In this document: one piece after another, positions 471 to 56,815 of the stretch
Layout of the letters: each line of letters begins with the position of its first letter
Position numbering within the stretch: position 1 is the stretch's first letter
NCBI RefSeq assembly: GCF_045037415.1
Contig: NZ_CP173438.1
Direction: 5' to 3' (one strand)
DNA length: 64,000 nt
From: Escherichia coli
GTDB taxonomy: Bacteria; Pseudomonadota; Gammaproteobacteria; Enterobacterales; Enterobacteriaceae
The notes under the pieces: model-generated
Seen by the model: only the letters and a program-made list of their open reading frames with translations
Told to the model about the DNA's origin: nothing
The model's database searches: none
Position numbers and translations under genes: made by a program

Positions 471-2159
471 ATGGCAAGTTCGGGCACAACATCGACGCGT
501 AAGCGCTTTACCGGCGCAGAATTTATCGTTCATTTCCTGGAACAGCAGGGCATTAAGATTGTGACGGGTATTCCGGGCGGTTCTATCCTGCCTGTTTACG
601 ATGCCTTAAGCCAAAGCACGCAAATCCGCCATATTCTGGCTCGCCACGAACAAGGGGCGGGGTTTATCGCCCAGGGAATGGCGCGCACCGACGGTAAACC
701 GGCGGTCTGTATGGCCTGTAGCGGACCGGGTGCGACTAACCTGGTGACCGCCATTGCCGATGCGAGGCTGGACTCCATCCCGCTGATTTGCATCACTGGT
801 CAGGTTTCCGCCTCGATGATCGGCACCGACGCCTTCCAGGAAGTCGACACCTACGGCATCTCTATCCCCATCACCAAACACAACTATCTGGTCAGACATA
901 TCGAAGAACTCCCGCAGGTCATGAGCGATGCCTTCAGCATTGCGCAATCAGGCCGCCCTGGCCCGGTGTGGATAGACATTCCTAAGGATGTGCAAACGGC
1001 AGTTTTTGAGATTGAAACACAGCCCGCTATGGCAGAAAAAGCCGCCGCACCCGCCTTTAGCGAAGAAAGTATTCGTGACGCGGCGGCGATGATTAACGCC
1101 GCCAAACACCCGGTGCTTTATCTGGGTGGTGGTGTGATCAACGCGCCTGCGCGAGTGCGTGAACTGGCGGAGAAAGCGCAACTGCCTACCACCATGACTT
1201 TAATGGCGCTGGGTATGTTGCCAAAAGCGCATCCGCTGTCGCTGGGTATGCTGGGGATGCACGGTGTGCGCAGCACCAACTATATTTTGCAGGAGGCGGA
1301 TCTGCTGATTGTACTCGGTGCGCGTTTTGATGACCGGGCGATTGGCAAAACAGAGCAGTTCTGTCCGAATGCCAAAATTATTCATGTCGATATCGACCGC
1401 GCAGAGCTGGGCAAAATCAAGCAACCGCATGTGGCAATTCAGGCGGATGTTGATGACGTGCTGGCGCAGTTGATCCCGCTGGTGGAAGCGCAACCGCGTG
1501 CAGAGTGGCACCAGTTGGTGGCGGATTTGCAGCGTGAATTCCCGTGTCCAATCCCGAAAGCGTGCGATCCATTAAGCCATTACGGCCTGATCAACGCCGT
1601 TGCCGCCTGTGTCGATGACAATGCGATTATCACTACCGACGTGGGTCAGCATCAGATGTGGACCGCGCAAGCCTATCCGCTCAATCGCCCACGCCAGTGG
1701 CTGACCTCCGGCGGGCTGGGCACGATGGGTTTTGGCCTGCCTGCGGCGATTGGCGCGGCGCTGGCGAACCCGGACCGCAAAGTGTTGTGCTTCTCCGGCG
1801 ACGGCAGCCTGATGATGAATATTCAGGAGATGGCGACCGCCAGTGAAAATCAGCTGGATGTTAAAATCATTTTGATGAACAACGAAGCGCTGGGGCTGGT
1901 GCATCAGCAACAGAGTCTGTTCTACAAGCAGGGCGTTTTTGCCGCTACCTATCCGGGCAAAATCAACTTTATGCAGATTGCCGCCGGATTCGGCCTCGAA
2001 ACCTGTGATTTGAATAACGAAGCCGATCCGCAGGCTGCATTGCAGGAAATCATCAATCGCCCTGGCCCGGCGCTGATCCATGTGCGCATTGATGCCGAAG
2101 AAAAAGTGTACCCGATGGTGCCGCCAGGTGCGGCGAATACTGAAATGGTGGGGGAATAA
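471..2159 (+). CDS. ilvB: acetolactate synthase I large subunit (562 aa)
   Basis: ATG start; ThDP-enzyme sequence (GIPGGSILPVYDAL..., GDGSLMMNIQE motif); length and position before ilvN match ilvB. Confidence 0.95.
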   Translation: MASSGTTSTRKRFTGAEFIVHFLEQQGIKIVTGIPGGSILPVYDALSQSTQIRHILARHEQGAGFIAQGMARTDGKPAVCMACSGPGATNLVTAIADARLDSIPLICITGQVSASMIGTDAFQEVDTYGISIPITKHNYLVRHIEELPQVMSDAFSIAQSGRPGPVWIDIPKDVQTAVFEIETQPAMAEKAAAPAFSEESIRDAAAMINAAKHPVLYLGGGVINAPARVRELAEKAQLPTTMTLMALGMLPKAHPLSLGMLGMHGVRSTNYILQEADLLIVLGARFDDRAIGKTEQFCPNAKIIHVDIDRAELGKIKQPHVAIQADVDDVLAQLIPLVEAQPRAEWHQLVADLQREFPCPIPKACDPLSHYGLINAVAACVDDNAIITTDVGQHQMWTAQAYPLNRPRQWLTSGGLGTMGFGLPAAIGAALANPDRKVLCFSGDGSLMMNIQEMATASENQLDVKIILMNNEALGLVHQQQSLFYKQGVFAATYPGKINFMQIAAGFGLETCDLNNEADPQAALQEIINRPGPALIHVRIDAEEKVYPMVPPGAANTEMVGE

Positions 2160-2162
2160 GCC

Positions 2163-2453
2163 ATGCAAAACACAACTCATGATAACGTGATTCTGGAGCT
2201 CACCGTTCGCAATCATCCGGGTGTAATGACCCACGTTTGTGGCCTTTTTGCCCGCCGCGCTTTTAACGTTGAAGGCATTCTCTGCCTGCCGATTCAGGAC
2301 AGCGACAAAAGCCACATCTGGCTACTGGTCAATGACGACCAGCGTCTGGAGCAGATGATAAGCCAAATCGACAAGCTGGAAGATGTGGTGAAAGTGCAGC
2401 GTAATCAGTCCGACCCGACGATGTTTAACAAGATTGCGGTGTTTTTTCAGTAA
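2163..2453 (+). CDS. ilvN: acetolactate synthase I small regulatory subunit (96 aa)
   Basis: Starts 4 bp after ilvB stop; ACT-domain-like sequence [39 protein letters not shown]. Confidence 0.93.
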
Positions 2454-2461
2454 GTGATTTT

Positions 2462-2500
2462 CTCGCCTGGATGGGATATTTACATCCGGGCGAGCTTATA
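2462..2500 (+). terminator. putative intrinsic terminator after ilvN
   Basis: Inverted repeat ctcgcctggatg / catccgggcgag (one G-U wobble) immediately after ilvN stop, followed by a moderately U-rich tract. Confidence 0.45.
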
Positions 2501-2890
2501 TTCTGCAACTCAAATTATTCAGAGTATATATTCGTCCATTGAAGACAACATTGATTTCTTATTCATATCATCAGGCCAATTCACTTCACGGCCCCAAATA
2601 CCTGGAGCAGTGTTGATAGATTTCTCTAAAAACTCATCGTCAAAATTCATAAAGCTATTAATCCATAACCATAATTTGTTATTTGTCATATGCAATGCAT
2701 TTGTAGCACTCTCTGTCGTTATCAGGTTAAAGGTGTCAATAATATTTGTACTGTCTAATGATTCATAAACAATACAGCGAATGGTGGCGTATGTGGAATG
2801 GTGATTTTGCGCAAAAAAAGCTATACCTTGAATTTGTTCCCAGTCGTACTCTTTATATTCAGGCTTAGTATGTTTGTAGAATGGGTAGTG

Positions 2891-3379
2891 CTACCAGAAG
2901 GTATAGGTCGATTTATGACTCATATCATTAAGAATATAATTACAAATATAGACCTTTCCTGTTTTTCTATTAAAACGAATTGGGTAATGTCGCGGGGCAA
3001 AGATAAAATAATTTAGGATAGCAGCAAAAACAAAAGACATGAAAAAAATTGCGCAGTAAGCAATATGTAGCAGTAACTCAGAGTCTGCGCGGTATCTCCA
3101 CGTATCTAAGTATCGTTCGAAGTTAAATATAATGTCATATATAAAGAATAAAACAGAGCCAAAACATAAAATAACGATAGGTAAAAAAAGAACGATGCTC
3201 AGAATGTTCATGCCATAAAATGACGTGTAGTTTCGTGTTATCTCACAGTAGTTGTCATTAATATATGTTAATTTATCACTGTTTGATAACTTCTCACTAT
3301 TGCTTTGTGTTCTTTTGTTTATTTCATTAATGAGTCGTGGAACAAGAGTTTGTTTTATTAAGTGAGGGTGAGTGTGCAT
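2891..3379 (-). CDS. hypothetical small membrane protein in AT-rich ilvN-uhpA spacer
   Basis: 162-aa ORF with two hydrophobic helix-like segments in a strongly AT-rich 1.4-kb spacer; no recognisable family. Confidence 0.3.
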   Translation of the reverse strand: MHTHPHLIKQTLVPRLINEINKRTQSNSEKLSNSDKLTYINDNYCEITRNYTSFYGMNILSIVLFLPIVILCFGSVLFFIYDIIFNFERYLDTWRYRADSELLLHIAYCAIFFMSFVFAAILNYFIFAPRHYPIRFNRKTGKVYICNYILNDMSHKSTYTFW

Positions 3380-3862
3380 ATCTGCTCCTTTTTTACAGAC
3401 AATATCACGCAGGGATTTTTTTGTACATTAATCGGTGGGTTTTATTATTAAAATGTAATAATGAAGCAGGCATGCTTGTCATACTTCAAGTTGCATGTGC
3501 TGTGTCTGCGAAATATTCGACCTTTCAGGATTAGTGCAAGCGTTGTTCAAAACGTCACTGCGTTTTTTCCTGCAGCGCGAATTATTTCGAGTATGGTTTT
3601 TATACTGAACTAATAATTTATAATTATACAAACAATCAAACTATAAATATAGAATATACATTTTACTTATTCAAAATGGATACTAACAAGGTATTAATGC
3701 CGCCAGCATTTTTAATGGTTAGTCGATATACAAGTCCTTGAAGGCATCACTTCTTTCCACAAGCAACAAGAGCGCAGCTTTTGGCAGTAACCGCTCAAGG
3801 CTTGAACAACATCGCGCTTATCGTTAAGGTAAGCGCGTTTTATTACCCGCCAGGACAAGACC

Positions 3863-4453
3863 ATGATCACCGTTGCCCTTATAGACGATCACCTTATCGT
3901 CCGCTCCGGCTTTGCGCAGCTGCTGGGGCTGGAACCTGATTTGCAGGTAGTTGCCGAGTTTGGTTCGGGGCGCGAGGCGCTGGCGGGGCTGCCGGGGCGC
4001 GGTGTGCAGGTGTGTATTTGCGATATCTCCATGCCTGATATCTCCGGTCTGGAGCTTCTAAGCCAGCTGCCGAAAGGCATGGCGACAATTATGCTCTCCG
4101 TTCACGACAGTCCGGCGCTGGTTGAGCAGGCGCTTAACGCGGGGGCGCGCGGCTTTCTCTCCAAACGCTGTAGCCCGGATGAACTCATTGCTGCGGTGCA
4201 TACGGTTGCCACTGGCGGCTGTTATCTGACGCCGGATATTGCCATTAAACTGGCATCTGGTCGCCAGGACCCGCTAACCAAACGCGAACGCCAGGTGGCA
4301 GAAAAACTGGCGCAAGGAATGGCGGTGAAAGAGATTGCCGCCGAACTGGGCTTGTCGCCGAAAACAGTACACGTCCATCGCGCCAATCTGATGGAAAAAC
4401 TGGGCGTCAGTAACGACGTTGAACTGGCGCGCCGCATGTTTGATGGCTGGTGA
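3863..4453 (+). CDS. uhpA: response regulator UhpA (NarL/FixJ family, 196 aa)
   Basis: Receiver domain ([10 protein letters not shown]...) plus C-terminal LuxR-type HTH ([40 protein letters not shown]); followed by uhpB/uhpC/uhpT. Confidence 0.95.
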
Positions 4454-8859: not shown

Positions 8860-10626
8860 TTATTCCGTGACTTCCAGCGTAGTGAAGGCAAACTTCTCAC
8901 CATCAAACAGCCCCTGACTGGTTAGTTTCAGCGCGGGGATCACTGGCAGGGAAAGAAACGCCATCTGAATAAACGGCTCATCCGGTAACGGACCGCATTC
9001 ACGGGCGGCGGCTTTCAAGGCGTCAATTTGCTCCGCCAGTGACTGCGCCGTGTCGGTGCTCATTAGCCCGGCAATGGGCAACGGTAGATGACTTTGTACC
9101 TGGCCGTTACGGACCACGCACAGCCCGCCGCCATCCTGAATCACCTGATTGACCGCCAGCGCCATCTCTTCTGCGCTACGACCGATCACCACAATATTAT
9201 GGCTGTCATGGCTGACCGTCGCCGCCAGCGCACCTTCATTCAGGCCAAAGCCGCCGAGCAAACCACAGGCCGGAGCCAGTCGTTGTCCGTAACGCTCAAG
9301 AACGGCAATAAAGCACACATCATCGCGATCAAAACCGTTTTCGCTGTAGACGCTGGAGCGGGAGTGCGTGATCAGTTCGTTATGGATTACCTCAATAACG
9401 CGATAGCGTTTTCCGGGGGTAAATTGCAGGGCAAAGTCACTGGCGGAAACTGGCTGGCGATCAATGGTATTGCCATATGGCGGGGCGGATTGTGCCAGTC
9501 TCGCCGACTCTTCCGCCTGTAAGGTTTGTGCATCGATCGGCTCGCCTTTCACCAGTACCTGCTGCACCGTGACCTTACGCGCATCGCTCAACAGGACGAT
9601 ATCGGCCTGCTTGCCGGGTGCCAGTAAGCCGAGGTGATTCAGACCAAAATGGCGCGCCGTCGACCAGCTGGCTACGCGATATGCCACATGCAGCGGTACA
9701 TTGTGTTGTTCGATCAGGCGGCGAATTAAGGCATCGATGTGTCCTTCATGGGCGATCTCCCACGGGTTACGGTCATCGGTACAGAGCATGCATTGCGGGC
9801 TGTTAAATTCGTTGATCAACGGTGCCAGCGCGTTGAGATTGCGGGCTGCGGACCCTTCACGGATCATCAATGACATGCCGAGTTGCAATTTCCGGCGTCC
9901 TTCTTCCAACTGATAACTTTCGTGGCAGTTTTCAATACCCGCAGCAATATAGGCGTTAAGTTCTTTACCACCCAAACCCGGGCAGTGACCGTCCAGTGTC
10001 AGGTGGCGAAATGCGTCCAGTTTATCGAGCAGCGCATTCTGCCCGCTAATTACGCCAGGGTAGTCCATCATTTCTGCAAGGCCGGTAACCTGCGGATGGT
10101 CCCGCCAGGCGAGCATCTGTTCAAGGGTAAAACTGGCACCATTAACATCGCAGCCTTCCAGGGCGGGTACGCAAGAGCTGACCTGTAAGTACTGGTTTTG
10201 CCTTGCCTGTTCGGCACAGCGGGCAAACCAGGCGAATCCGGCTTCTCCCATCACGTTGACGATTTCATGAGGGTCGCAAATAACGGTCGTCAGGCCGCGC
10301 GGCAGGGTAGCAGTTTCAAAGGTGACCGGCGTCATCATGCTGGATTCAATATGCAGGTGAGCATCAATAAACCCTGGCACCGCCGTTGCGCCGCGGGCAT
10401 CAATCCGCTGCAAAGCCGGAGCATCAGCGTATTCTGCGCCAACACCGGCAATGTAACGTCCTTTAATCACAATTGGGCCGGAAATTTCTCCGCCATTGAT
10501 CAGGTCGAGAATAGAGACATTATCAATAATATAATCGGCAACAGCGTCTCCACGGGAAACGGCTAACAATTCCTGGTATTCAGCCCGGCTAATGTGATGA
10601 AATTTATGGTTAATAGAATTATTCAT
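8860..10626 (-). CDS. ade: adenine deaminase (588 aa)
   Basis: Amidohydrolase metal-binding motifs ([15 protein letters not shown]...); length and position next to uhpT match E. coli ade (yicP). Confidence 0.93.
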
Positions 10627-10800
10627 ATTTTTCTCATTTTGATTTTATCAATTTGATTATTATTTATCATAAAGAAACGTCGCGAGATTATTAAAGAATA
10701 TCCATTAATGTGCAATTGAAATGTGATAATTATCACTGAACCGTTGTTGTCATTTGTTTTACAAAAGCAAGGGATTAAATCTCCTCCAATGGACAAAAAA

Positions 10801-12135
10801 ATGAATAATGACAATACCGATTACGTGAGTAATGAATCAGGGACGCTTTCGCGATTATTTAAACTACCTCAGCATGGGACCACCGTCCGCACAGAATTGA
10901 TTGCGGGGATGACCACTTTTTTAACCATGGTGTACATCGTTTTTGTGAACCCGCAAATCCTCGGCGCGGCACAAATGGACCCAAAAGTGGTGTTTGTTAC
11001 CACCTGTTTGATTGCCGGTATCGGCAGTATTGCGATGGGGGTATTTGCTAACTTACCCGTGGCACTGGCTCCGGCAATGGGCCTGAACGCCTTCTTTGCC
11101 TTCGTGGTCGTGGGGGCGATGGGTATCTCCTGGCAGACCGGGATGGGCGCGATATTCTGGGGCGCAGTTGGGCTATTTTTGCTCACGCTGTTTCGTATCC
11201 GGTACTGGATGATCTCCAACATTCCATTAAGTTTACGTATTGGTATCACCAGCGGAATCGGATTATTTATCGCCTTAATGGGATTAAAAAATACTGGCGT
11301 TATTGTCGCCAATAAAGACACCCTGGTGATGATTGGCGATTTAAGTTCTCACGGCGTGTTGTTAGGTATTTTAGGGTTTTTTATTATAACTGTGTTGTCA
11401 TCACGTCATTTTCATGCCGCGGTGCTTGTTTCTATTGTGGTGACGTCTTGCTGTGGATTATTTTTCGGTGATGTTCATTTTAGCGGTGTCTATTCCATTC
11501 CGCCTGATATTAGCGGCGTCATTGGTGAAGTGGATTTGAGCGGTGCGTTATCACTTGAACTCGCCGGTATCATTTTCTCCTTTATGCTGATCAACTTATT
11601 TGATTCATCAGGGACATTAATTGGTGTGACTGATAAAGCTGGCTTAATAGATAGTAACGGTAAATTCCCCAATATGAATAAGGCGCTGTATGTTGATAGC
11701 ATCAGTTCGGTGGCGGGTGCGTTTATCGGTACCTCGTCTGTTACCGCCTATATTGAAAGTACTTCAGGTGTGGCTGTCGGTGGTCGCACGGGGCTGACTG
11801 CGGTTGTTGTCGGCGTTATGTTTCTGCTGGTTATGTTCTTCTCACCGCTGGTGGCGATGGTTCCTCCTTACGCAACCGCCGGAGCGTTAATCTTTGTTGG
11901 CGTATTGATGACATCGAGCCTGGCACGCGTTAACTGGGATGATTTTACCGAATCGGTGCCTGCGTTTATTACCACGGTGATGATGCCCTTTACGTTCTCG
12001 ATCACCGAAGGGATTGCACTAGGCTTTATGTCGTACTGCATCATGAAAGTGTGCACCGGGCGCTGGCGCGATCTGAACCTGTGTGTGGTGGTGGTCGCAG
12101 CTCTGTTTGCACTGAAGATTATTCTGGTGGATTAG
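10801..12135 (+). CDS. adeQ: adenine permease, NCS2/AzgA-like (about 444 aa)
   Basis: Multi-pass membrane protein beginning MNNDNTDYVSNESGTLSRLFKL...; ORF track extends to 10723 via a GTG that I regard as a spurious N-terminal extension; ATG at 10789 also possible. Confidence 0.88.
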   Translation: MNNDNTDYVSNESGTLSRLFKLPQHGTTVRTELIAGMTTFLTMVYIVFVNPQILGAAQMDPKVVFVTTCLIAGIGSIAMGVFANLPVALAPAMGLNAFFAFVVVGAMGISWQTGMGAIFWGAVGLFLLTLFRIRYWMISNIPLSLRIGITSGIGLFIALMGLKNTGVIVANKDTLVMIGDLSSHGVLLGILGFFIITVLSSRHFHAAVLVSIVVTSCCGLFFGDVHFSGVYSIPPDISGVIGEVDLSGALSLELAGIIFSFMLINLFDSSGTLIGVTDKAGLIDSNGKFPNMNKALYVDSISSVAGAFIGTSSVTAYIESTSGVAVGGRTGLTAVVVGVMFLLVMFFSPLVAMVPPYATAGALIFVGVLMTSSLARVNWDDFTESVPAFITTVMMPFTFSITEGIALGFMSYCIMKVCTGRWRDLNLCVVVVAALFALKIILVD

Positions 12136-18411: not shown

Positions 18412-19254
18412 TTATGAAGGTAACACTCCCGGATAGTGTTTCGCAATAATCTCATTCAGCCTGTCAACCAGTTCTGGTTTCCTGAACGTGATGTGTGCGG
18501 AGCCCTTCTTAAAGTATCTGATGCTGAACATCTCATCTTCGTAGTCCTCTTTACCTTGAACAGACTGGGTGTGGTCATCCAGATGAATGGTGATGTTTTC
18601 CCGGTTGTCGGGGATCGGTTTGCCGCTGAACAGGTGCAGCATTCTTTCCAGATCGGCAAGTCGATCGGCCTGTTGCCCGGTGATAAGATGAAACCCCCAT
18701 CTGTCCCACCTTACCAGGTTGTTGACGATAATTTTACTGCCAAACTTGCAGGGGCAATTGGTTTTGTAATTCCAGCTCAGTCCCCTGAAGACGTTGATCA
18801 CCCCCCGCTCAAACACTTCATCTTTGTTCTGGTGCAGTTGTTCAAATGTGCTCAGAATGTTCGCTTCACTGATTTCCGGAAAATTATCGTATTCCAGTGA
18901 TCGGTACCATGTATCACGGGCCTGTGCATCCATTAAGGAAAGCATCCCTGAACGTTGCATCAGGTCACGCCAGATTTCGCGGTCAAGATTCCGGGTAATG
19001 GCTTTCATTGCCGTTTCAGGTTTCTCCATGAGCCAGCATCCGCAGCGAAAATCCTGTTTCATGGCCCAGTCCGGGGCAGTTTTACCTCCGATGCTTTCCG
19101 TCAGCACCGAGATTTCAGCCAGTTGCCGGATAAGTGTGTCGATTTGCAGCAGTGTATTCTTTCGTACAGCCAGAATGTGGCAGATTGAGGTGGAACAGAT
19201 AACGTCCGTATGCCCGTTGACCACTTCCGGACGGGAGACTGTGATTTTAGACAT
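18412..19254 (-). CDS. conserved hypothetical protein at distal end of CP4-like cassette (280 aa)
   Basis: Long ORF co-oriented with the cbtA/cbeA cassette; no family recognised by eye. Confidence 0.5.
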   Translation of the reverse strand: MSKITVSRPEVVNGHTDVICSTSICHILAVRKNTLLQIDTLIRQLAEISVLTESIGGKTAPDWAMKQDFRCGCWLMEKPETAMKAITRNLDREIWRDLMQRSGMLSLMDAQARDTWYRSLEYDNFPEISEANILSTFEQLHQNKDEVFERGVINVFRGLSWNYKTNCPCKFGSKIIVNNLVRWDRWGFHLITGQQADRLADLERMLHLFSGKPIPDNRENITIHLDDHTQSVQGKEDYEDEMFSIRYFKKGSAHITFRKPELVDRLNEIIAKHYPGVLPS

Positions 19255-53300: not shown

Positions 53301-53550
53301 TACTGCCAGCTTTGTGGGAAGAGAGGGCTTTTTCCAAACGCTCCAACAGCACCTGCTCGGCATTCACACCATGCAGTTTATTCAGTTTGTGCCAGGCATC
53401 TGGCTGGGTGGCCTTTACCCAATCCATGACATCTTGCGGGTAAAGGGCGCGTTGCTGGTCATAGTGGCAGGAATGGCCTTCTTTCCAGCCATTGTTCACC
53501 AACTGCTCGGTAATATATTGTTCAAAATGCACTTCATGATGTGCAGCCAT
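50314..53550 (-). CDS. hsdR: Type I restriction enzyme R subunit (1078 aa)
   Basis: Helicase motifs: Walker A EHSAGSGKT and DEAH-box variant IIDEAHTS; N-terminal nuclease-type region; start overlaps hsdS stop. Confidence 0.9.
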   Translation of the reverse strand: MAAHHEVHFEQYITEQLVNNGWKEGHSCHYDQQRALYPQDVMDWVKATQPDAWHKLNKLHGVNAEQVLLERLEKALSSHKAGSKTGGTINVLRKGFTIAGCGTIAMGQRKPEDARNEERIARYEHNILRVVRQLKYCPTREWEIDLVFFINGLPVATAELKTDFTQSLESAIAQYKEDRLPVDPKTKRKEPLLTFKRGAVVHFAMSDTEIAMATKLAGENTYFLPFNKGHDGSTSDLPVHINLPGEDGEYPVSYFWQEIAQKDNWLRIFYSFVYVETKEVADSNGKVERKETQIFPRYHQLAAVNKMIDDARQNGAGMQYLCEHSAGSGKTSTIAWTAHDLIRLRSTDGKAVFKSVIIVTDRTVLDSQLQDAVQQLDHQYGVIKAIDREKSSESKSKQLTEALLTGTPIIVVTIQTFPYALEAILTNQSLAQSNFAVIIDEAHTSQTGSTAKGLRAALTLNLSPQELEQMSIEDILTKVQEARAMPKNVSHFAFTATPKHSTKMLFGRPKDPNQPVSDDNLPESFHLYTQRQAIDEGFILDVLENYTHYDTAYKIGENNLDEKRVDSKQARRALARWMSLHPTTVSQKVEFIIKHFKANIAHLLEGEAKAMVVTSGRPQAVKYKLAFDKYIKKHGIEGIQALVAFSGKVPGKDLGDEDSQDPLEIDFDKEYTEYNLNPDTHGADLRHEFEKTEYRVMLVANKFQTGFNQPKLVAMYLDKKISDVEAVQTLSRLNRTYPGKDTTFVIDFVNDPQTILNAFKKYDKGAQLNEVQDVNVIYDIKDILDEQNIYNHQDLELFKQARGKSILGQSPDKKSHAHKKLLAATQRPTDVFNVKLKELVDAANHWDQQYNKAHLAGDEKAANYAESQRSDFTKQREALMRFKSDLARFVKHYSYMAQLIEFGDPELENFAAFAHLLSRRLKGVTPENIDLSALVLEKFKIKYDKEPLPEAFNQVLEPIRPNYNDPADREQAFLADIIRRLNELFGDVGDEPGRRNFANGTITRVTQNPIVVEQIEKHDKSIALKGDLPQAVKQAVVQALLKEGDIARTLLKDPQVMASYVELIFDMMKQGAEQAAVK

Positions 53551-54836
53551 TACACCGCCTCCCTGACGTCTATTTTTCCTGTGACAGCCGCGTTGATCAG
53601 CGATGTGCGGTGTTCTTTTAGAAGATCAATCGATTTATCAGTCTCTTGAATCAGTAAATCAATGTTTATCGTTGCTGCACTCAAGTAATTCGTTATTGTC
53701 TTTTGCTCATCAATTGGTGGGATAGCAATACTTGTATTAGCTAGTGAAGGAATGCTCAGGTTGTAGTTACCTACCGATGTTCTTGACTGAAATGTTAATG
53801 CTTGACGAACAGATAGTGAGTTCATCGCTTCCACTAAGAAGCTAGTATCCACTCCTTGCTTTGGTGTTAACTTTATTAGGTACGACGCAAATAAATACTG
53901 CCCATTTGAATCAAAAAGCGCGCTTTGGCCGACCAGATTAGGGTTACCGTTAGTTCTGATGACTAAAATGTCGCCTCTTGATAAAAGATAAGTTAAAGCA
54001 TCAACATCACTGATATTTGCATATTTGAGATCTTCAAAATCAACATTGGTACTCTTGATGTTTGGTATCCTGAGAACAGGATAGCCAACATCAGACTGGT
54101 TACAGTCTTGAGAGGTTCCATACATAAAGTTGGAGCAAATATGCTTTATCTTTTTGACTTCCCAATGCTTCGGCACTTGCCCAATCCACTCGATGCCAGA
54201 GTCCTGCATCTCCACATTGGGATAGAGCCCCTTTGTGACCACATGGCTGATCAGTGCTTGGCGTTTTTCTTTGAGCAGCTTAATAAAGGTCTGCTTTTCC
54301 TCGATCAGACTGTCGATGCGCTGGGTTTCGCGATCAAGGAATGTGCTAACCTGCTTCTGTAATGAAATATCAATCAGTGGAACAGGTATTTCTAAAAGAT
54401 CACCAGCTGTTAGGTTCTGACGAACTCCTCCACCCAGTTTGTTATAAATATTGGTTAGGTATAGAGCAAAAAAGTACCAGTAATAGAACCTTGGGTAGAT
54501 GCTATTTGAACTCGCTGAAACACGGATGTATGCAGGGCTCATTATTCCTCGTTCATGCACAATCCCCACTCGGCTAGTCTTTATATTTTCAAGATCTATG
54601 AGCTTAAAAACTAAGTCATCTTTTTCAAAAATCTGATAAACAGAGTAATCAGAAGATTGAAGTCCTTGTAAATCGTCTAACGAGCGGTTTATGACACCTT
54701 TCATTGTTAGTGCAAGACGATTAGATTCTTTCATTCCTTGATTGATTTCTTTGCTACTCGTAAATAAACGTTTAGCTGGTACTGAGTTCCATTTCGAGTC
54801 AGATACGAAAGCATCTACTATGTTGCCAGCATTCAT
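53550..54836 (-). CDS. hsdS: Type I R-M specificity subunit (428 aa)
   Basis: Two target-recognition-domain halves separated by conserved coiled-coil-like regions (LQKQVSTFLDRETQRIDSLIEEKQTFIKLLKEKRQALI); start overlaps hsdM stop. Confidence 0.85.
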   Translation of the reverse strand: MNAGNIVDAFVSDSKWNSVPAKRLFTSSKEINQGMKESNRLALTMKGVINRSLDDLQGLQSSDYSVYQIFEKDDLVFKLIDLENIKTSRVGIVHERGIMSPAYIRVSASSNSIYPRFYYWYFFALYLTNIYNKLGGGVRQNLTAGDLLEIPVPLIDISLQKQVSTFLDRETQRIDSLIEEKQTFIKLLKEKRQALISHVVTKGLYPNVEMQDSGIEWIGQVPKHWEVKKIKHICSNFMYGTSQDCNQSDVGYPVLRIPNIKSTNVDFEDLKYANISDVDALTYLLSRGDILVIRTNGNPNLVGQSALFDSNGQYLFASYLIKLTPKQGVDTSFLVEAMNSLSVRQALTFQSRTSVGNYNLSIPSLANTSIAIPPIDEQKTITNYLSAATINIDLLIQETDKSIDLLKEHRTSLINAAVTGKIDVREAV

Positions 54837-56815
54837 TACGCCACCTCATTCAGCAGAGCCTGAATGCGCGCTTCACATGCTTTTAGCTCACGATCAATCA
54901 CACTCAACTCGCGTGGTGGCACGTATTGGTAGAAATAGCGGTTAAAGTTAATTTCATAACCGACAATGCCCACTTCGCCGTCTTTTTCATCACGCACTGA
55001 GTGATCAATAAAGGCATCCGGTACATGTGGCAGCACCTCTTGTGCGAAGTAATCTTCAACGTCGCGGTCAAAAGGAATGCTTTCGGTGTCTTTGAGTTTA
55101 GGGTCGGCGATCACTTGGCCTTTTTCATCCAGTGCAGGCTCAAATTGCGGATCAATTTTTACAAAGTGCGCAGTTAAGGCCGTAGCCAGTGCTTTTGAGC
55201 ACTTACCAAAGTCACCCTTATTGTTATTCTTCTTAACCGCCAAACGTGCCCATTCATAAGGCTGAAGGCCAAGGTTATCGGTGAGGTATTGTACCCATGC
55301 CGCTTGTTGCTCTGGTTTGAGTTTTTTAAACGTATCTTGCTGCACAAATGCAGCAATGCCCGCAGCGGTAATATCTAGTTTGGCACGCAGTGGACGCTGA
55401 ATGGTGACTTTACGGTAGGCAAAATCAGTAGTCTGGAAGATCTTACAGTTGTCACTGGCTTCAAAGCCATCGTACGCACGGACAATATCGTCAATCTGTT
55501 CATCACTCAGGTACTTGCGCTTATCGCCTTGCGATTTACGCATGGGAGTCCAAATATCTGCCAAGTTAATCAGTTGCACCTGATTCTTGCGTCTTGGCTC
55601 TTTATGGTTAGTCAAAATCCAGATGTAGGTGCCAATGCCGGTGTTGAAGAACATATCGGTTGGCAGGGCAACAATCGCTTCGACTAAGTCTTGTTCTAGC
55701 AGCCAACGGCGGATTTCTGATGGGCCTGAGCCTGCATCGCCATTAAACAGTGGCGAGCCAGAAAGGACTATACCCACTCGGCCACCACCATTTTCTGGCG
55801 TTTCCATTTTTGATACCAAGTGCAGTAAAAACAGCATTGAACCATCAGAAATACTCGGCAGGCCTGGCCCAAAGCGTCCGGCGTATTTGAGCTGTTTGTG
55901 CTCACGTTCTACTTCTTTCTTGGCTTTTTCCCACTTAATGCCAAATGGCGGGTTGGCAAGGCCGTAGTGAAACTTGTCGGCACGTAACTGATCGTCTGAT
56001 AAGGTGTTGCCTTGCTTGATGTTATTGGCATCAAAACCGCGGATCATCATATTGGTCAGCGCCATGGCATGGGTCGCGGGGTCGAGCTCTTGACCAAAAG
56101 GCACGACTTTAGCGCTGCTGCCCATTTCTTCAATTTGGCTAATGGCATCGGAAAGGAAACCGCCCGTGCCACAGGTTGGGTCATAGATGGTGCGGATCAC
56201 ACCCTTTTCACTAAAGATATCTTCATCCGCCGCCAGCACCAGTTTGGTGGCAAGACGCACGGCATCACGCGGGGTCATAAATTCCCCGGCCTTTTCATTA
56301 ACCGAACTGGCGAACTTTAGAATCAGCTCTTCATAAGCATCTGATAATACGCGGTCAGACACTACATCAGGATGCAAGTCGAGGTTGGCAAAATGGTTTA
56401 CCATGCGATACAGCAACTTGGCTTTTTCCAGATCTTCTATGGTTTGACCAAATTTAAACTCATCAAAGATGGTACGAACGTTTTTGCTGAACTGGCTGAT
56501 GTAGTGTTCTAGGTTGTCGCCGGTGTCTGACGCGCCTAAGGTTTCTAGGCTATATTCACTGGTGTTGTAAAAGGCGAATCCCGCAATTTCTGGCAACACT
56601 AAACCAAGGTCTATGCCGGATTGTTTTTCGGCCAGATAGAACTTACGAACTTCCTCACGGGTGGGTTCTAACACGCATTCAATACGACGCAGTAGCAAAA
56701 ATGGCAGGATAATCCGCGCAAAATCGGTGTGTTTGAAATCACCCCATAAATCATCTGCCATACGCCAAATAGCACTGGAGAGTTTGGCGCTTTGTTCTTT
56801 GTCTTGTAAGTTCAT
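54836..56815 (-). CDS. hsdM: Type I R-M N6-adenine DNA methyltransferase subunit (659 aa)
   Basis: SAM-binding DPTCGTGGFL and catalytic NPPF (GLANPPFG) motifs; unusually long for HsdM. Confidence 0.9.
   Translation of the reverse strand: MNLQDKEQSAKLSSAIWRMADDLWGDFKHTDFARIILPFLLLRRIECVLEPTREEVRKFYLAEKQSGIDLGLVLPEIAGFAFYNTSEYSLETLGASDTGDNLEHYISQFSKNVRTIFDEFKFGQTIEDLEKAKLLYRMVNHFANLDLHPDVVSDRVLSDAYEELILKFASSVNEKAGEFMTPRDAVRLATKLVLAADEDIFSEKGVIRTIYDPTCGTGGFLSDAISQIEEMGSSAKVVPFGQELDPATHAMALTNMMIRGFDANNIKQGNTLSDDQLRADKFHYGLANPPFGIKWEKAKKEVEREHKQLKYAGRFGPGLPSISDGSMLFLLHLVSKMETPENGGGRVGIVLSGSPLFNGDAGSGPSEIRRWLLEQDLVEAIVALPTDMFFNTGIGTYIWILTNHKEPRRKNQVQLINLADIWTPMRKSQGDKRKYLSDEQIDDIVRAYDGFEASDNCKIFQTTDFAYRKVTIQRPLRAKLDITAAGIAAFVQQDTFKKLKPEQQAAWVQYLTDNLGLQPYEWARLAVKKNNNKGDFGKCSKALATALTAHFVKIDPQFEPALDEKGQVIADPKLKDTESIPFDRDVEDYFAQEVLPHVPDAFIDHSVRDEKDGEVGIVGYEINFNRYFYQYVPPRELSVIDRELKACEARIQALLNEVA

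Follow-up and report, generated by a model that had tools for sequence, protein, structure and literature searches.

Contents of the ilvN-uhpA spacer

The stretch of Escherichia coli DNA described here (64,000 nucleotides (nt) of contig NZ_CP173438.1, assembly GCF_045037415.1; hereafter the window) contains a small islet between the core genes ilvN and uhpA, the only gene of which belongs to the protein family DUF6708 (PF20455) and is interrupted by a single nonsense base. We consider the intact form of this gene, which is present in other strains, to be probably an orphan immunity gene directed against pore-forming toxins of competing bacteria. The ilvN gene ends at position 2453 and uhpA starts at position 3863, which leaves a spacer of 1,409 bp (2454-3862). 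Its overall G+C content is 0.351, as compared with 0.552 for ilvBN and 0.574 for uhpAB, and in windows of 300 nt the values range from 0.31 to 0.37 across the spacer versus 0.50 to 0.62 in ilvBN and uhpAB; the AT-rich 1.4-kb spacer reported in the first-pass annotation, at 35% G+C between flanks of 55-57%, is present as described. The spacer is not a chance dip in composition, because only 75 bp separate the same two genes in E. coli K-12. Alignment to K-12 places approximately 1,337 bp of extra DNA (2454-3790) directly after the stop codon of ilvN. The surrounding genes lie on the same strand in the order ilvB, ilvN, uhpA, uhpB, uhpC and uhpT. The features of the locus are as follows (sources in parentheses; ORF, open reading frame).

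471-2159, plus strand: ilvB, upstream of ilvN
2163-2453, plus strand: ilvN, acetolactate synthase small subunit, left flank (ORF list; RefSeq annotation of identical DNA)
2462-2494, no strand: predicted hairpin with a 12-bp stem between the convergent ilvN and DUF6708 genes, followed by CTTATATT on the plus strand (fold prediction)
2496-2530, no strand: sequence like the terminal repeat of enterobacterial repetitive intergenic consensus (ERIC) elements (repeat families; comparison with the ERIC element of strain F11)
2519-3379, minus strand: DUF6708 (PF20455) pseudogene, 861 nt, 286 codons, interrupted at codon 163 (Pfam; RefSeq; intact alleles)
2891-2893, minus strand: in-frame TAG at codon 163, TGG to TAG (G to A, window position 2892; comparison with the allele of strain AVS0969)
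2891-3379, minus strand: ORF of 162 amino acids (aa) that covers the predicted cytoplasmic segment at the N-terminus, the two transmembrane helices and the first part of the conserved FAPRHYPIRFNRKTGKVY motif
3385-3390, minus strand: Shine-Dalgarno sequence AAGGAG, 5 nt upstream of the ATG (read from the sequence)
3466-3594, minus strand: 129-bp ERIC-like element upstream of the DUF6708 gene, with termini that match ERIC and a divergent core (end-to-end alignment with the F11 ERIC element)
3765-3790, plus strand: decayed copy of the 27 nt at the end of ilvN with its TAA, 20 of 27 positions identical, right boundary of the islet
3791-3862, plus strand: conserved ilvN-uhpA spacer of 72 bp, equivalent to the whole 75-bp spacer of K-12 (K-12 alignment)
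3813-3837: terminator-like hairpin in the conserved spacer (terminator scan; fold z -3.7)
3863-4453, plus strand: uhpA, response regulator, right flank (ORF list; RefSeq)

All other ORFs within 2454-3862 are short, overlap the DUF6708 gene or lie in repeat DNA. That the extra DNA is an islet, that its gene is a pseudogene and that this gene belongs to DUF6708 can be regarded as practically certain.

The interrupted DUF6708 gene and its relatives

The minus-strand ORF at 2891-3379, which had been listed as encoding a small membrane protein, exists with its ATG start, its 162 aa and its two long hydrophobic helices, but it is not a gene of its own. Translation of the minus strand runs on in the same frame past the TAG at 2891-2893 to a stop at 2519-2521, and the ORF represents the first 162 codons of the 286-codon DUF6708 gene. 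Both halves of the window gene score above the gathering threshold of PF20455 (27 bits), with 38.1 bits for the N-terminal and 36.5 bits for the C-terminal half, and the intact ortholog of strain F11 (286 aa) reaches 74.5 bits. The locus is already annotated in RefSeq: on the 100% identical locus of strain AZ 190 the gene appears as a 'DUF6708 domain-containing protein, internal stop' (pseudogene), and intact genes are annotated in strains F11, AVS0969 and ChlosBP-23-1 (e.g., WP_001259006.1 and WP_000556883.1, the latter one base away from the window gene). Neither a second DUF6708 copy nor a remnant of one was found in the window. The present analysis adds the one-base history of the pseudogene, the behavior of the junction as a hot spot, the identification of ERIC sequences and the connection to VasX-family immunity. 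In practical terms, annotators should treat the 162-aa ORF as a segment of a pseudogene rather than as a small membrane-protein gene.

The window gene differs from the intact AVS0969 allele at one of 861 nt (A versus G at gene position 488), and because only this base separates the two, the inactivation must be very recent. A 61-nt probe around the TAG matched 364 genomes exactly and a further 200 with one to three mismatches; two of the latter 200 were checked, and both carry an intact gene. In the protein collection, the 162-aa product is represented by a cluster (P0011) with 232 sequences.

AlphaFold models the intact ortholog (pLDDT 79.5) with a short N-terminal beta-hairpin, two long hydrophobic helices that span residues ~51-84 and ~97-126, respectively, and a domain rich in beta structure. 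From its charge distribution, the protein is predicted to have both soluble parts on the cytoplasmic side of the membrane. In the family alignment, residues P132, N136, R137, T139, K141, Y143, P165 and W179 are invariant and the hydrophobic helices precede the motif P-x-R-F-N-R-K-T-G-K-V-Y, which is itself invariant; a conserved WP...K(K)S motif lies at the C-terminus. A search of the PDB sequences with the family profile yielded chance matches only (E at least 1), and neither PADLOC nor NCBIfam matched the intact protein.

The closest relatives outside E. coli (63-65% aa identity, 71% nt identity) occupy the same site in the same orientation between ilvN and uhpA; such same-site orthologs are found in Klebsiella oxytoca, K. 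pasteurii, K. grimontii and K. spallanzanii. Genomes of the K. aerogenes type contain a tandem pair of DUF6708 genes (43-46% identity) between uhpT and yicN (loci L008-L012, ~9100-11750), and Entomohabitans contains a solitary relative of 29% identity among housekeeping genes (ybbN/qmcA). No toxin gene was found near the Klebsiella same-site copies, the uhpT-yicN copies or the Entomohabitans copy. Within Enterobacteriaceae, the copies cluster on both sides of the uhp operon. The ratio of nonsynonymous to synonymous substitution rates (dN/dS) of the DUF6708 gene is 0.21 among E. coli alleles and 0.13 in comparison with K. oxytoca, and that of ilvN and uhpA is 0.05-0.08. The intact alleles are under purifying selection; the strong Shine-Dalgarno sequence and the low dN/dS indicate that the intact gene was once functional.

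Regarding the more distant homologs (25-35% identity) in Limnobaculum and Gilliamella, tandem arrays of two to seven copies lie directly downstream of a gene of the VasX/BTH_I2691 family. Homology between these effector-linked copies and the E. coli protein is full-length. Within a type VI secretion system (T6SS) cluster with PAAR, TssM, TssA, TssF and TssG, a BTH_I2691-type gene is followed by two DUF6708 copies, one of which is the homolog P0022 (34% identity, phmmer E 1.3e-31); in locus L018 (the same as L026) the DUF6708 array is situated inside a T6SS cluster. The Gilliamella locus L027 shows the order vgrG, a 299-aa ORF without family match, a 1,217-aa effector, seven DUF6708 genes and PAAR; its effector scores 68.6 bits with Pfam VasX_N and 191.7 bits with NCBIfam NF041559 (cutoff 150). 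Upstream sequence of 2.5 kb or more was available for 20 loci, and in 14 of these a VasX-like coding region ends upstream of the first DUF6708 copy at a distance of 1 kb or less. The six exceptions are two Klebsiella loci, one locus each from Entomohabitans, Citrobacter and Herbaspirillum, and one Gilliamella array (L037) with no detectable effector upstream. A word-indexed profile search of proteins yielded no further effector-linked relatives.

Islet junctions, repeats and surroundings

The islet is bounded by a direct repeat, the left copy of which is the end of ilvN (2427-2453) and the right copy the decayed duplicate at 3765-3790. The score of this pair was reached by none of 50,000 shuffles and by 9 of the 127,948 26-mers of the window, self copies included. 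A flanking repeat derived from the 3' end of the target gene is one of the marks of integrase-type islets; the other, a mobility gene, is absent, since the DUF6708 gene is the only gene of the islet and neither an integrase nor any other mobility gene was found inside it. A search of plasmids found the DUF6708 gene on none, and thus provides no evidence of current mobility. The islet (at least 80% of the query) is present in 758 of 5,426 complete E. coli genomes and absent from approximately 86%. The first-pass annotation had proposed an old horizontally acquired islet, which agrees with the absence from K-12 and most E. coli, the AT-richness and the decayed ilvN 3'-end duplicate at the boundary. 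Far from being identical and unannotated across the species, the spacer is both variable and annotated.

In other strains (E57, O157:H7 isolates) the same site is taken by an unrelated AT-rich insert of 3.4 kb, the first base of which follows directly on the TAA of ilvN. This insert (locus L016, 2637-6061; 35.6% G+C) was matched in 1,111 genomes, in 644 of them over at least 80%. It is carried by about one fifth of complete E. coli genomes and contains two or three hypothetical genes, and the two hypothetical proteins of E57 (160 and 479 aa) have no match in Pfam or NCBIfam. The base after the ilvN stop (2453/2454) is therefore a multi-state hot spot with at least three states in E. coli (empty, DUF6708 islet, unrelated 3.4-kb islet), and the ilvN-uhpA junction can be used as a strain marker. 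In strain Ecol_867, an IS1 element lies in the islet between ilvN and the pseudogene (locus L015, 791-1488); apart from this, the strain and the window are 100% identical here. A literature search on ilvN, uhpA and intergenic returned nothing.

The arrival of the islet can be accounted for by either of two histories: it may have inserted long ago at the 3' end of ilvN and later have been lost precisely and repeatedly via the 27-bp repeat, or it may have been acquired repeatedly at a favored site. The synteny in Klebsiella, a faint similarity at the Klebsiella junction, the AT-richness in two hosts (islet DNA of 34% G+C in E. coli and 37% in K. oxytoca, in a genome region of 59-65% in the latter) and the absences in the genome scan point to an old, patchily retained element; among the species representatives returned by that scan, which used a single peptide pattern, the islet was absent from all others. 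The synonymous divergence (dS) of the DUF6708 gene is 1.7 versus 0.75-0.89 for the flanks, so that independent arrivals are possible as well.

The hairpin at 2462-2494 has a predicted energy of -23.7 kcal/mol (z -4.5; none of 200 shuffles equally stable) and is a likely transcription stop for ilvBN. It was not called by the terminator scan because its loop comprises 9 nt. In K. oxytoca an analogous hairpin of different sequence occupies the same place (z -4.2).

Repeats of the ERIC type, also named IRU, were reportedly described by Hulton et al. in 1991 and by Sharples and Lloyd in 1990. A motif of ~26 nt that recurs at 2496-2530, 3466-3500 and 3563-3594 was considered as remnants of neighboring gene ends; this was rejected, as the motif is the ERIC terminal sequence. 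Measured against the definition of ERIC (an imperfect palindrome of ~127 bp with conserved termini and core), the element at 3466-3594 matches both termini over its 129-bp unit but does not conserve the core, and the sequence at 2496-2530 matches one terminus. The copies of the window lack the canonical core; they are passengers in the islet and not its cause. The E. coli DUF6708 gene takes its final two codons and its stop codon from the ERIC-like end at 2496-2530, which may be the reason why the E. coli C-terminus (...EYIL*) is shorter than that of Klebsiella (...EYSKICSE*).

Strain F11 contains an extra 130 bp at window position ~2500, between ilvN and the DUF6708 gene (locus L002, 1698-1827), which represent a canonical ERIC element. 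It is bordered by TATAT on both sides and abuts ERIC-end-like sequence; its core matches the primer sequences ERIC1R and ERIC2, and E. coli genomes contain the element at 13 places each (median). Only islets of the F11 type carry this canonical copy, which seems to represent a recent insertion polymorphism. An invertible switch formed by the inverted repeats around the F11 gene was also considered and rejected, the arms being ERIC termini.

This inventory bears on the proposal that the spacer is regulatory DNA for uhpA, whether as promoter or operator sites or by silencing of the operon. The spacer does lie directly upstream of uhpA, and AT-rich DNA is a typical target of H-NS, so that a side effect on uhpA expression is conceivable. 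However, most E. coli operate uhpABCT with just 75 bp, and the 72 bp that adjoin uhpA in the window correspond to the K-12 spacer, conserved and complete. The remainder is accounted for by the gene, the two ERIC-type pieces and the junction remnants, promoter-like matches in the region number 7 versus 6.2 expected from shuffles, and elsewhere an unrelated insert sits at the same site. A regulatory role is thus highly improbable. A permissive Rfam search of 2300-4000 found no RNA family, only a chance snoRNA match (E 0.25).

Farther along the window, the stretch from ~18400 to 57400 is rich in mobile DNA and encodes a DUF4942 protein (18412-19254), an IS66 transposase (41509-43077), two IS110-family transposases (43187-44320 and 44734-45867), RhuM (47848-48897) and the type I restriction-modification system hsdR/S/M (50314-56815). 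ARAGORN found no tRNA in the window (1-64000), although the genes yicL, nlpA and RhuM of the selC (tRNA-Sec) neighborhood are present; the selC tRNA is perhaps located outside the 64 kb, or else the island may have displaced it. In the otherwise identical strain AZ 190, tRNA-Sec and yicJ/yicI follow directly after the RhuM gene. A RelE/helix-turn-helix toxin-antitoxin pair lies beside yicN both in E. coli AZ 190 and in Klebsiella (loci L021, 36419-37079, L004 and L008); it is another small accessory module, and its position is conserved across both genera.

Proposed function of the intact gene

DUF6708 genes can be said to occupy an immunity position because their homologs elsewhere adjoin effector genes. 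In Stenotrophomonas rhizophila, tse3, which encodes MIX-III and BTH_I2691 domains, is followed by tsi3a (DUF6708) and 12 homologs (PMC13340143; PMC10777753). The E. coli protein scores above the cutoff of PF20455, the family that includes Tsi3a and its 12 paralogs, and has the family architecture and the PxRFNRKTGKVY motif. Tsi3a and the Gilliamella and Limnobaculum copies form arrays 3' of a BTH_I2691/VasX effector in vgrG operons; the E. coli copy, unlike Tsi3a, is single, has no effector within 64 kb, is placed between core genes and is a pseudogene here.

Toxins of the VasX family enter the inner membrane and dissipate the membrane potential (PMC13133200). The immunity protein Tki5 of Pseudomonas putida, an inner-membrane protein, co-purifies with its toxin Tke5 from the membrane fraction and prevents depolarization, and in an AlphaFold-3 model the interface between the transmembrane region of Tke5 and the immunity protein lies within the membrane (PMC13133200). 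With the validated immunity proteins Tki5 and TsiV2 (the latter of Vibrio cholerae), the DUF6708 protein has in common a predicted location in the inner membrane, a similar size and a gene family immediately 3' of the toxin gene; the mechanism proposed for it, binding of the membrane domain of the toxin (PMC13133200), would likewise be the same.

By analogy, we infer, with a probability of roughly 60%, that the intact gene is an orphan immunity gene against a VasX-type pore-forming T6SS toxin of a competitor. In this reading, the islet, inserted immediately after the ilvN stop, has the DUF6708 gene as its sole cargo on the opposite strand. The intact protein would reside in the inner membrane, anchored by its two-helix hairpin between a cytoplasmic segment at the N-terminus and a C-terminal domain rich in beta structure; its distant relatives are encoded just 3' of toxin genes, where cognate immunity genes are located. 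From the inner membrane it would neutralize an incoming pore-forming toxin, as Tki5 does with Tke5. In this strain the gene is dead or crippled, as the change from TGG to TAG ends translation after residue 162 and leaves only the membrane hairpin.

What characterizes an orphan immunity gene is found at the locus, namely a gene of an immunity family, the absence of a linked effector and strain-variable presence. The acquired interbacterial defense islands of Bacteroidales are a further example of orphan immunity. The orphan immunity arrays of V. cholerae (PMC5361080) are alike in that an immunity-type gene occurs without its toxin, varies between strains and has a foreign base composition; unlike these arrays, the islet contains a single gene and no integrase or mobile-element genes, lies away from a T6SS locus and occupies a hot spot between core genes that is found across genera.

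Several points weigh against the immunity assignment. A tblastn search found no VasX-like, VgrG, PAAR or Tss genes in the 64-kb window, so that the gene here is not adjacent to an effector, and no candidate for the attacking toxin was identified. The relatives nearest in sequence (43-65% identity), those of Klebsiella and allies, are without exception orphans located around the uhp operon, and the effector-linked copies are just 25-35% identical to the E. coli gene, a distance over which function may have drifted. The association in 14 of 20 loci is dominated by one genus, Gilliamella, and the genome scan for DUF6708 loci used one peptide pattern. Finally, the literature contains no experimental demonstration of immunity for any DUF6708 protein, the assignment in S. 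rhizophila having been made by gene position.

A rival reading is that the DUF6708 protein of E. coli and Klebsiella has a function of its own, unrelated to T6SS toxins, for example in membrane housekeeping or stress, and has only its ancestry in common with the effector-linked copies. The close relatives occur solo or paired beside core metabolic genes (ilvN-uhpA, uhpT-yicN), as does the Entomohabitans gene at ybbN/qmcA, no toxin is nearby, purifying selection persisted without a linked toxin, and PADLOC and NCBIfam assign nothing. Nevertheless, a gene that is missing from most complete E. coli genomes and carries a nonsense allele in 364 genomes is dispensable; patchy distribution, AT-richness and tandem duplication, as in the genomes of the K. 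aerogenes type, are typical of immunity genes; and the full-length homology to the effector-linked copies extends to the invariant motif. An independent function is therefore regarded as rather unlikely.

A different question is whether the truncated 162-aa product is itself functional, as a two-helix membrane protein that retains part of the old activity or has gained a new one. Both transmembrane helices are retained in it, as are the start codon and the Shine-Dalgarno sequence, the modeled Tke5 interface lies in the membrane, and the TAG allele is frequent. Yet the most conserved parts of the family are found at or after the truncation (RFNRKTGKVY at 135-143, P165, W179 and the C-terminal WP...K(K)S), and as nothing but the TAG distinguishes the gene from an intact allele, there was no time for adaptation. 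Clonal expansion of a single, heavily sequenced lineage is a simpler explanation for the frequency of the TAG allele. A functional truncated product is accordingly very unlikely.

Returning to the orphan immunity gene, a broader and more tentative picture, which we put forward as possible rather than probable, is that selection maintains the intact gene at one core site, both in the K. oxytoca complex and in some E. coli lineages (among them that of the uropathogenic strain F11), as a working orphan immunity against VasX-type toxins, that the junction is a cross-genus hot spot at which defensive cargos are swapped, and that a clone sequenced many times has lost this protection, as marked by the TAG allele. 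Being one base apart, the intact allele and the nonsense allele would constitute a natural isogenic pair. If the assignment is true, DUF6708 would thereby receive its first function in Enterobacteriaceae, and immunity without a toxin would shape the competition among E. coli and Klebsiella in the gut.
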